From the IMG/VR virus record IMGVR_UViG_2851949629_000009, positions 1-23,710 of that record: a stretch of DNA of 23,710 nt; one strand, written 5' to 3'. This DNA comes from a virus. Taxonomy: Duplodnaviria > Heunggongvirae > Uroviricota > Caudoviricetes. This document shows positions 18,001 to 21,000 of the stretch, piece by piece; position 1 is the first letter of the stretch, and each line of letters opens with the position of its first letter. Position numbers: made by a program.

Positions 18001-21000
18001 CGCAACAGTTATTCGCTGACAGGGCAGCCAGTTCCGTGGCAGTGGTGGAATGACCGCGACGTAAGAACAATCGTCGAACTTGGGAAGGCAATAGGATTCG
18101 ACCCTAAGCGAGATATGCCATTCAAAGGAACTCGCCACAACGCGCTTGATGATGCCATCCACCAAGCCAAATACGTTTCAGCGATCTGGAAAAAGTTAGC
18201 TAAATAATCAACAGGAGAAAACCATGCCAGCGCCTCTGTATGGTGCGGACGACGTGCGCCGCTGTTCCGGCAATTCCGTATCGGAGGTGCTGGATAAATT
18301 CAGAAAAAACTACGATCGGATAATGTCGCTACCGCAGGAAACGAAAGAGGAAAAGGAATTTCGCCATTGTATATGGCTTGCAGAGAAAGAAGAACGCGAG
18401 CGAATTTACCAGACATCAATCCGACCATTCCGCAAAGCCACATATACCCACTTCCCTGAAATTGACCCGCGCCTGCGTAATTACCGCTCACGCTATGGCG
18501 CTATCAGTAATGACTGAGGAATTAACAATGAAAACAATGAAGCTAAACATCGACCTCGGAAAATACGTTATTACCGGAACCAAACACGATCTGATTCTTA
18601 GCGAAAGAGGAATTATCAAAGAAGGCGAGAATGCAGGGAAAGAAACACTAAGCCGTATCGGTTATTACAGCAAGTTTGAGCATCTGGTTAAAGAATTATG
18701 CAACCGTGAAATCCTGTTATCTCAGGCGCAGACGCTACAGGATATTCAGCAGCATATCGAGACTTTAGGTGTGTCACTTAGCATGACCGTTGACCAGTTC
18801 GTGGAGAGTAAATCATGAGAGGACTTGCATACAATCCCGGCATTCTTCCGGCAGAAATGATTATTCGCCAACGCGTAAAGCCAATGCCATCGAGAGAGGA
18901 ATTGCTTAAGCGAAACTCGTTTCCATCAGTGAATCAAAACAAATATCTGAACGCGATGTTGCGGAGTGGGAAGAAATGAAACAAATGTCACTAATTGAGA
19001 TGGATGGTTTTCTGAAAGGTAAATGCATCCCACGAGATTTAAAGGTTAACGAAACAAACGCTGAATATCTGGTGCGTAAATTTGCTGAAGCGGAGGCCAA
19101 GATTTCAGCTCTGTCCGAAGACCACCAGAAAGCGATTGAGTCAATTAAGCAGGCTGATGCGGCTGTTAAGTTGGCACACGAGAAGTTTTCGGCGCTGGCG
19201 GCGGAGAATGCGCGGCTGAATAAATTTATCGTACAGAGTTGCTATGTGTTTAATGGCGAGCAGGATGAAATATCTGATGCGTATATCTGCGCAACAGACG
19301 GAGGTATGCCGCAAATTCCAGCCACCGATGCTTTTCTGGCTGAAGTACGAGCGCAGGGCGTGGAGATGTTTGCTGAGTGCGCATACACACTTGAACATCA
19401 TGATCACGCAGTAGCCTTCGCCGCAGAGCTTCGCAAAGGAGGCAACCAGTGACTGGACATGCAGCTATCCTCGACATGTGCTGTGGCAGTCGCATGTTCT
19501 GGTTCGATAAGAATGACGACCGGGCGATATTTAGCGATATCAGAAAGGAAGAGCACACATTATGTGATGGACGACGGCTGATAATTAGCCCTGACCTGAT
19601 AGCAGATTTTCGTGCATTACCATTTGCAGACGCATCGTTTCCGGTTGTTGTATTCGACCCTCCGCATCTTGAGCGTGTTGGTGATAACGCCTGGATGGGA
19701 AAGAAATATGGACGGCTGAATAAAGATACCTGGCGTGATGATTTGCGGCAGGGATTTAAAGAAGCCTTTCGTGTGTTGCGACCATACGGCGTTCTGATTT
19801 TTAAATGGAATGAAACGCAAATACCTGTTCGCCAGATATTGGCACTGACCGACAGAAAGCCTGTTATCGGTCAACGAACAGGAAAAGGTGACAAGACCCA
19901 CTGGATTATTTTTATGAAGGAGGCGGCCAGTGAGCAAGATTGACTATCAGGCATTGCGTGAAAAGGCAGAGAAAGCAACGTGTGGTGAGTGGTCGCTCGA
20001 ATATGGAGAGAGCCGATTTGATGGTGATGATGCGCTAATTCATCGTGAAGTTGCTGGATATATTCCCATTTGCAGAATTGAAGGAGCGCATCCTGAAAGC
20101 GGTTTCGATGAAGATTTCCAAACTGAACAGCAGGCCAATGCTGAATTCATCGCCGCAGCCAATCCGCTACCGTCTTGGCACTGCTGGATGAGCTGGAAGC
20201 CGCAGAGAAGCGCAACGCAAAATTACAAAGCGAAAATGCATACATCCGCAACCGGTACAAAGAACTGGACCTATTAATCGGGAAAAACATTCTGGTAATG
20301 CAGGCTGCGATTATCGAATGGCAGGCAACTGGCGACGCTAAGAGCGGACTGGCATGGATTTATAACACACTGTTTGGCCCAGGCGAATTGCCGGACGAAT
20401 CTGAGAAAGATGCTCAGGCCTACTTTAATCGCAAATATGCACCGATTGACGAAAAGCTTATGGAGCTTCACAAGTGGTTTTGGGAACAAAGTGAAGCCGA
20501 GCGCGCTGCTGGTATTCGCATCAAAGGAGACTGATATGGCTATTGCCGCAAGTTACACCATGCATCTCTATTGTGACTGCCGCCAGTGTACGGAAGGTGT
20601 ATATCCAGTGCCAGACTTCGGTGAGTATATCGGTACGTCATGGTCTGGTTGTGCAAAAGAGGCCCGTAAAGACGGGTGGCGAATAAGCGCCGACAAAACG
20701 CGTGCTTTTGCGCCCGGGCATAAAGTTTTGAGGATTAACAAATGACCACTATTACCAAAGAGCGACTGCTGACAATCAAGCTGTGGCGCGAAATATACGG
20801 ACCTAGCAGCAACGTTGTACTGCCAGCAGAAGAAGCGGAAGAACTGGCACGAATTGCGCTGGCATCGCTGGAAGCAGAGCCTGTTCTGTATCAGTCCTGC
20901 ACTCGCCCCACCTGGAATATCGGTGTTCCGTGGACGGAATGGAAAGAACGAAGTCGTGATTGCTACGAAGACGATTTGCGCTTTACAGACACGCCTGACC

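Follow-up and report, generated by a model that had tools for sequence, protein, structure and literature searches.

A single-base deletion very probably accounts for the two reading frames of an ead/Ea22-like gene in a damaged lambdoid prophage

Protein-like sequence at positions 19930-20534 of the window (the whole 23,710-nt stretch of viral DNA analysed here, from IMG/VR record IMGVR_UViG_2851949629_000009) starts in one reading frame and continues in another, which raises the question of whether one gene has been broken or two genes overlap. The original prediction described a frame switch inside a gene of roughly 200 aa, with the first frame ending at about 20170 and the second beginning at about 20145, and offered two readings: an indel-type pseudogene, or two genuine genes, the second starting at TTG 20175. 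The switch itself is confirmed. Two plus-strand ORFs lie here in different frames, frame A (19930-20277, GTG start, 115 aa) and frame B (20175-20534, TTG start, 119 aa) in the ORF list. Frame B is open from 20145 to 20534, directly after a TGA at 20142-20144 and thus exactly where predicted, and frame A terminates at TAA 20275-20277, so that the two overlap by 133 nt. The actual break, at 20166/20167, is at most 4 nt from the predicted end of frame A. With a probability of roughly 93%, we believe that 19930-20534 is one accessory gene of the ead/Ea22-like type found in lambdoid prophages, inactivated by the recent deletion of a single G. The elements of the locus are as follows.

19917 to 19923, plus strand: Shine-Dalgarno sequence AAGGAGG, 6 nt 5' of the ead/Ea22-like GTG start, read from the sequence.
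19930 to 20166, plus strand: ead/Ea22-like codons 1-79 in the native frame, the N-terminal Ead_Ea22 domain (Pfam PF13935, residues 2-79), ending in ANAEFIAAANP.
20145 to 20277, plus strand: 133 nt in which both frames are open, from a script scan.
20166 to 20167, plus strand: site of the 1-nt deletion, from the alignment with NZ_CP077469.1 and base-by-base comparison with sister copies L007 and L009.
20167 to 20277, plus strand: out-of-frame tail of 36 aberrant residues, LPSWHCWMSWKPQRSATQNYKAKMHTSATGTKNWTY, followed by TAA 20275-20277, from the ORF list and frame analysis.
20169 to 20534, plus strand: ancestral codons 81-201 in the other frame, ending with TGA 20532-20534; the translation equals intact residues 81-201 of L007 and L009.

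The lesion is best seen against intact homologues. The window reads AATCCGCTACC where they read AATCCGGCTACC, and hence one G of a GG doublet, in the context CCGG, is gone at 20166/20167. When the region is aligned to its homologue in NZ_CP077469.1 (E. coli O111:H11 strain 8D, product WP_000034266.1), 606 nt of a single gene pair in one piece with the 605-nt query, leaving exactly one gap, AATCC-GCTACC in the window against the full GG-containing stretch. The 1-nt deletion falls between codons 79 (Pro) and 80 (Ala) of an ancestral gene of 606 nt and 201 aa, so that CCG is followed by CTA in the window and by GCT in intact alleles. Putting the G back yields a single ORF of 201 codons. The starts of homologues (VSKIDYQ, MSKIDYQ or MTKINYQ) coincide with GTG 19930, which lies within the 3' end of the methyltransferase gene at 19449-19943, the two genes overlapping by 14 nt.

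Both halves proved to be protein-coding by homology, and to belong to the same family. Against Pfam PF13935 (Ead_Ea22; curated gathering score 27 bits) the frame A product scores 45.2 bits (E = 1.8e-11, residues 2-79), while the rebuilt 201-aa protein reaches 83.2 bits, its match (residues 2-113) crossing the break at residues 79/80; truncated ORF and rebuilt protein alike are thus above the family cut-off, but the window's product is truncated after residue 79 and no intact whole-protein ORF is left. Frame B corresponds to the C-terminal part of Ea22 from Stx phages: codons 81-201 encode a central segment, helical or coiled-coil, followed by a C-terminal domain like that of Stx phages, and in tblastn rebuilt residues 94-201 are 98-99% identical to that part (E about 1e-64). 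The tblastn comparison recommended with the original prediction finds single proteins spanning both frames, in ECO26.1 3-1 (residues 1-197, 95.4%) and mEp460 (residues 1-200, 70.6%). By megablast, 19930-20534 matched 1,103 of the 5,426 complete E. coli genomes searched, and CDSs named 'ead/Ea22-like family protein' underlie almost all of the matches listed. No NCBIfam model matched either fragment or the rebuilt protein, and a PDB sequence search with the latter gave no match at E up to 1. As in lambda, the gene belongs to the early leftward (pL) operon and stands between the recombination genes and xis/int, the place expected of this family. Given the single-gap alignment, the 201-codon ORF obtained on restoring the G and the Pfam match across the break, the two frames are one gene, and the locus is a pseudogene derived from a member of the Ead/Ea22-like family.

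Sister copies of the prophage, almost identical to the window, were found in public assemblies via the neighbouring 289-aa DUF551 protein.

L007, GCA_009868605.1, intact (GG): over 7,795 nt (window 15917-23710) it differs by the indel and by one SNP, at 22434.
L009, contig from run ERR1937356, intact (GG): over 2,470 nt (window 19475-21943) it differs by nothing but the indel.
L008, GCA_017760765.1, deletion: over 6,733 nt (window 15728-22460) it differs by one SNP, at 18045.

Base by base, the deletion is the only gap that separates the window from L007 and L009, and 19930-20166 is identical to the intact allele of both. The recorded entry for the intact product is WP_274480718.1, 'ead/Ea22-like family protein [Escherichia coli]' (from GCA_009868605.1 and GCA_015687295.1); its gene is nucleotide-identical to that of the window except for one G, and it has 201 aa as against the window's truncated 115 aa. 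L007 also has the window's flanks, starting with Rad52 and SSB and continuing past the methyltransferase, the 69-aa gene, DUF551 and the Lar-like gene as far as the integrase, whereas GCA_015687295.1 (L006) has in common with the window only the part from methyltransferase to integrase, its recombination genes being of the RecT/YqaJ type. Both of these prophages adjoin torS. With the missing G as its sole difference from the intact allele, the gene must have suffered the deletion very recently, and there is no further decay by which neutrality could be shown.

The deletion allele itself recurs. Short-read assemblies from at least 18 samples encode exactly the same 115-aa product, on contigs of ERR119381 (common to 12 samples), ERR049176 and ERR052908 (common to 5 samples); all three contigs contain the 42-nt deletion junction, and the ERR119381 contig (L003) is 100% identical to window 19475-21943 (2,469 nt). 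Elsewhere the intact form prevails. A 70-nt probe centred on the break matched 621 complete E. coli records, none of them (0/621) at 99% identity or more; in the 30 rows listed, the full-length matches each span one base more than the query and so carry the extra base, while for the other records the finding is confined to the absence of matches at that identity. A degenerate junction pattern run against IMG/VR returned 0 loci in its deletion form and 43 in its GG form, the positive control. The exact 42-nt junction was absent from a genome contig collection which, as it holds one genome per species, says little, and no match covered at least 80% of the right half of the window among the 5,426 complete E. 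coli genomes. The allele is shown to be fixed in one E. coli lineage, with sister copies of the same prophage keeping the intact gene.

These observations bear directly on one alternative, namely that the gene is really intact and the G was lost from the source record through faulty sequencing or assembly. No assembly error is commoner than a single-base indel, the doublet of G lies within CCGG, and nearly identical prophages do have GG there; but runs of two bases are not where such errors typically concentrate, and the same deletion with identical flanks is present in the ERR119381, ERR049176 and ERR052908 assemblies and in GCA_017760765.1. Judging by this agreement among independent assemblies, the deletion is not a one-off sequencing error, and that explanation, already largely refuted, keeps an extremely small chance of being correct. 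Close to negligible is the idea that the full-length product is recovered by programmed -1 frameshifting of the ribosome or by slippage during transcription. A -1 shift anywhere in 20145-20277 would indeed fuse the frames; however, a script scan of that overlap found no X XXY YYZ slippery heptamer, in or out of frame, and no homopolymer of at least 5, in which sense the original remark that the junction lacks a homopolymer holds. Of the two marks of programmed -1 frameshifting, neither a zero-frame heptamer nor a two-frame arrangement conserved among homologues is seen here. Homologues do not have two frames, and the sister prophages encode the protein in one.

The remaining alternative is the one raised at the outset, a split into two functional genes, with an N-terminal protein from 19930-20277 and a coiled-coil/C-terminal protein from TTG 20175 or ATG 20298. 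Both frames are still open across the overlap, a gene caller applied to Logan contigs reports a 78-aa ORF from ATG 20298, and in a modular family the break falls exactly at an inter-module hinge. We nevertheless consider it very unlikely. If this were a natural boundary, homologues should align as two separate proteins with conserved ends, but no homologue is split there: all 45 complete ORFs with an intact hinge among the loci compared (150-324 aa) run continuously through the site in a single frame. Neither internal start is preceded by a Shine-Dalgarno sequence (upstream of TTG 20175 the sequence is GCAGCCAATCCGCTACCGTC, upstream of ATG 20298 it is TCGGGAAAAACATTCTGGTA), and the exact 119-aa product is unrecorded among about 15 billion proteins, which together lead us to reject a separate gene from TTG 20175. 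Furthermore, the N-terminal fragment would carry 36 nonsense residues, the C-terminal domain of lambda Ea22 alone is inactive and did not reproduce the activity of the full-length protein (PMC10834534), and a one-base difference from the intact allele suggests no adaptation to a split state. In a scan of 19400-21000 no plus-strand promoter-like site was found inside the ead/Ea22-like gene, and counts of promoters and terminators were no higher than in shuffled sequence. Low-level re-initiation at ATG 20298 (78 aa) or TTG 20175 may occur. The annotation 'ead/Ea22-like (x2)' was also considered as a possible case of naturally split genes and rejected; it refers to an adjacent upstream paralogue. 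The first of the two readings originally offered, an indel-type pseudogene, is therefore the one we retain.

The position of the break deserves comment. It lies at a hinge, ANAEFIAAANP followed by ATVLALLDELEA, and the hinge sequence FIAAANPATVLALLDE was the search pattern with which the 45 ORFs were collected, so that its presence in all 45 is by construction. Around it these ORFs vary widely, with at least 3 types of N-terminal domain, 11 different 12-residue stretches after the hinge and 21 different C-terminal octamers; many of the ORFs end in AGIRIKGE. In most of the close homologues LLDE is immediately followed by one or two additional cassettes of 28 residues (RERNQQYIK...LRVE), which the window allele lacks. 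The hinge joins several types of N-terminal domain to many C-terminal modules, and the deletion has hit the best-conserved part of a family that is otherwise highly mosaic. This modularity fits the published diversity of Ea22 and is nothing new in principle. The conserved hinge and the AGIRIKGE ends (loci L013-L055; window 20140-20200 and 20510-20534) may act as recombination joints. As a separate observation, a 158-aa ORF at 18976-19452 has no Pfam match, yet over residues 81-142 it shares 67% identity with the C-terminal module of an Ead/Ea22-like protein on IMG/VR contig L016. The resemblance suggests an Ea22-type C-terminal module behind another N-terminus, a further sign of module shuffling.

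The window as a whole is a lambdoid prophage. The minus strand carries Q, a phosphatase gene, NinG, Dam, NinB, P, O and cII, and the plus strand a cI-like repressor gene, N, DUF2528, Rad52, SSB, an exonuclease, Abc2 and the methyltransferase, followed by the ead/Ea22-like gene, the 69-aa gene, DUF551, the Lar-like gene and int; in sister genomes torS comes after int. The methyltransferase of 19449-19943 (164 aa) is a class I SAM-dependent enzyme in RefSeq homologues, its Pfam matches being weak (Methyltransf_11, 22.2 bits), and is separate from the Dam-family methyltransferase gene at 6007-6594 on the minus strand. The window also contains two insertion elements.

11611 to 14151, minus strand: IS66-family element of 2,541 bp, from Pfam IS66 matches, a repeat search and ends read from the sequence.
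283 to 2816, inverted relative to the first: second IS66-family element, about 90% identical to the first.

The element at 11611-14151 contains three minus-strand ORFs between terminal repeats GTAAGCG.../...CGCTTAC and has a target duplication of 8 bp, ACCTACCT, whose two copies are perfect. Its insertion site is 42 nt 5' of the start codon (14194) of the antiterminator gene N, which is matched by Pfam and lies upstream of the ead/Ea22-like gene on the same strand and in the same leftward operon. The insertion probably uncouples the whole leftward early operon from pL. The 8-bp flanks of the element at 283-2816 do not match (GCTGATAT and GGTTAACG), which suggests a later rearrangement or deletion there; on the right it runs into the 3' end of a phage tRNA-Thr gene with tRNA-Asn beside it (region 2811-2965), and these tRNA genes directly follow the antiterminator gene Q (3057-3545, minus strand) on its downstream side. 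The stretch separating the first element from the cI-like repressor gene contains, in addition, a 174-aa minus-strand ORF (10424-10948) with no Pfam match and an orientation unusual for a lambda-like immunity region, with 10545-10907 on the plus strand at the same place.

From this arrangement the prophage appears to be defective, and its leftward operon, including the ead/Ea22-like gene, poorly expressed or dispensable, a state that fits the formation of a pseudogene. We suggest the following scenario. One IS66-family element lies between the repressor side, the expected site of pL, and N with the remainder of the leftward operon, and the other abuts the tRNA genes downstream of Q; the prophage being already damaged, selection on its genes would have been relaxed when the lesion arose. 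Translation from GTG 19930 yields the 79-residue N-terminal domain and 36 out-of-frame residues up to the premature TAA at 20275, leaving the other 121 codons, for the central helix and C-terminal domain, stranded in the other frame.

Such a product, with 79 native and 36 aberrant residues, lacks the helical region and the C-terminal domain. As no credible ribosome-binding site precedes the remainder, the C-terminal part is probably not made in useful amounts, and the allele would be null or severely truncated. An AlphaFold2 single-sequence model of the intact protein, of low confidence (mean pLDDT 52.3), places a long helix at residues 79-134, beginning at the break, followed by helices at 137-149 and 159-193. 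We can also imagine that the free 79-residue domain, or a coiled-coil/C-terminal fragment re-initiated at ATG 20298, interferes with or substitutes for the Ea22-type proteins of other prophages resident in that cell; while this would shift the lysis-lysogeny balance of other lambdoid prophages and explain fixation in the lineage, it is a highly improbable speculation.

What we describe is thus a recent, lineage-restricted frameshift pseudogene of an already known family, and an ordinary finding. Annotation should treat the locus as a single frameshifted ead/Ea22-like pseudogene and not as two hypothetical genes. The deletion could mark the E. coli clone that carries it, given that the intact allele persists in sister strains with this prophage; beyond correct annotation it has little importance.

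For the function that would be lost, we turn to the known Ea22 systems. Ea22 is an early, pL-driven protein favouring lysogeny, which consists of a short N-terminal segment, a central coiled coil and a C-terminal domain and forms tetramers (PMC10834534, PMC7093339); the helix layout of our low-confidence model (pLDDT 52.3) agrees with this published architecture (PMC10834534). Ea22 of Stx phages is reported to be pro-lysogenic, deletion of the gene leading to fewer lysogens and faster induction (PMC7093339). It is to these proteins that the second half of the window gene is closest: in BP-4795, Stx2 phage 86 and vB_EcoS_ST2-8624 ('protein ea22') the region equivalent to rebuilt residues 94-201 has the 98-99% identity given above, and the gene sits in the same neighbourhood, between recombination genes and int. 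Only the C-terminal 54% of the query aligns to these records, as the N-terminal and coiled-coil parts differ in mosaic fashion, and the Stx-phage ea22 genes are intact, unlike the window allele. With lambda the resemblance lies at the other end. The first ~47 residues of lambda Ea22 (NP_040612.1, 182 aa) are 40% identical to those of the window protein (E = 7e-5), while beyond the N-terminus no similarity was detectable, and no PDB chain, including the structure of the lambda Ea22 C-terminal domain, matches the rebuilt protein by sequence. Lambda Ea22 and P22 Ead are nonetheless the founders of Pfam PF13935 and give the same family match as the window protein, and lambda Ea22 occupies the corresponding position in the pL-driven exo-xis region, although the recombination genes there are exo/bet and those of the window are of the Rad52/SSB type.
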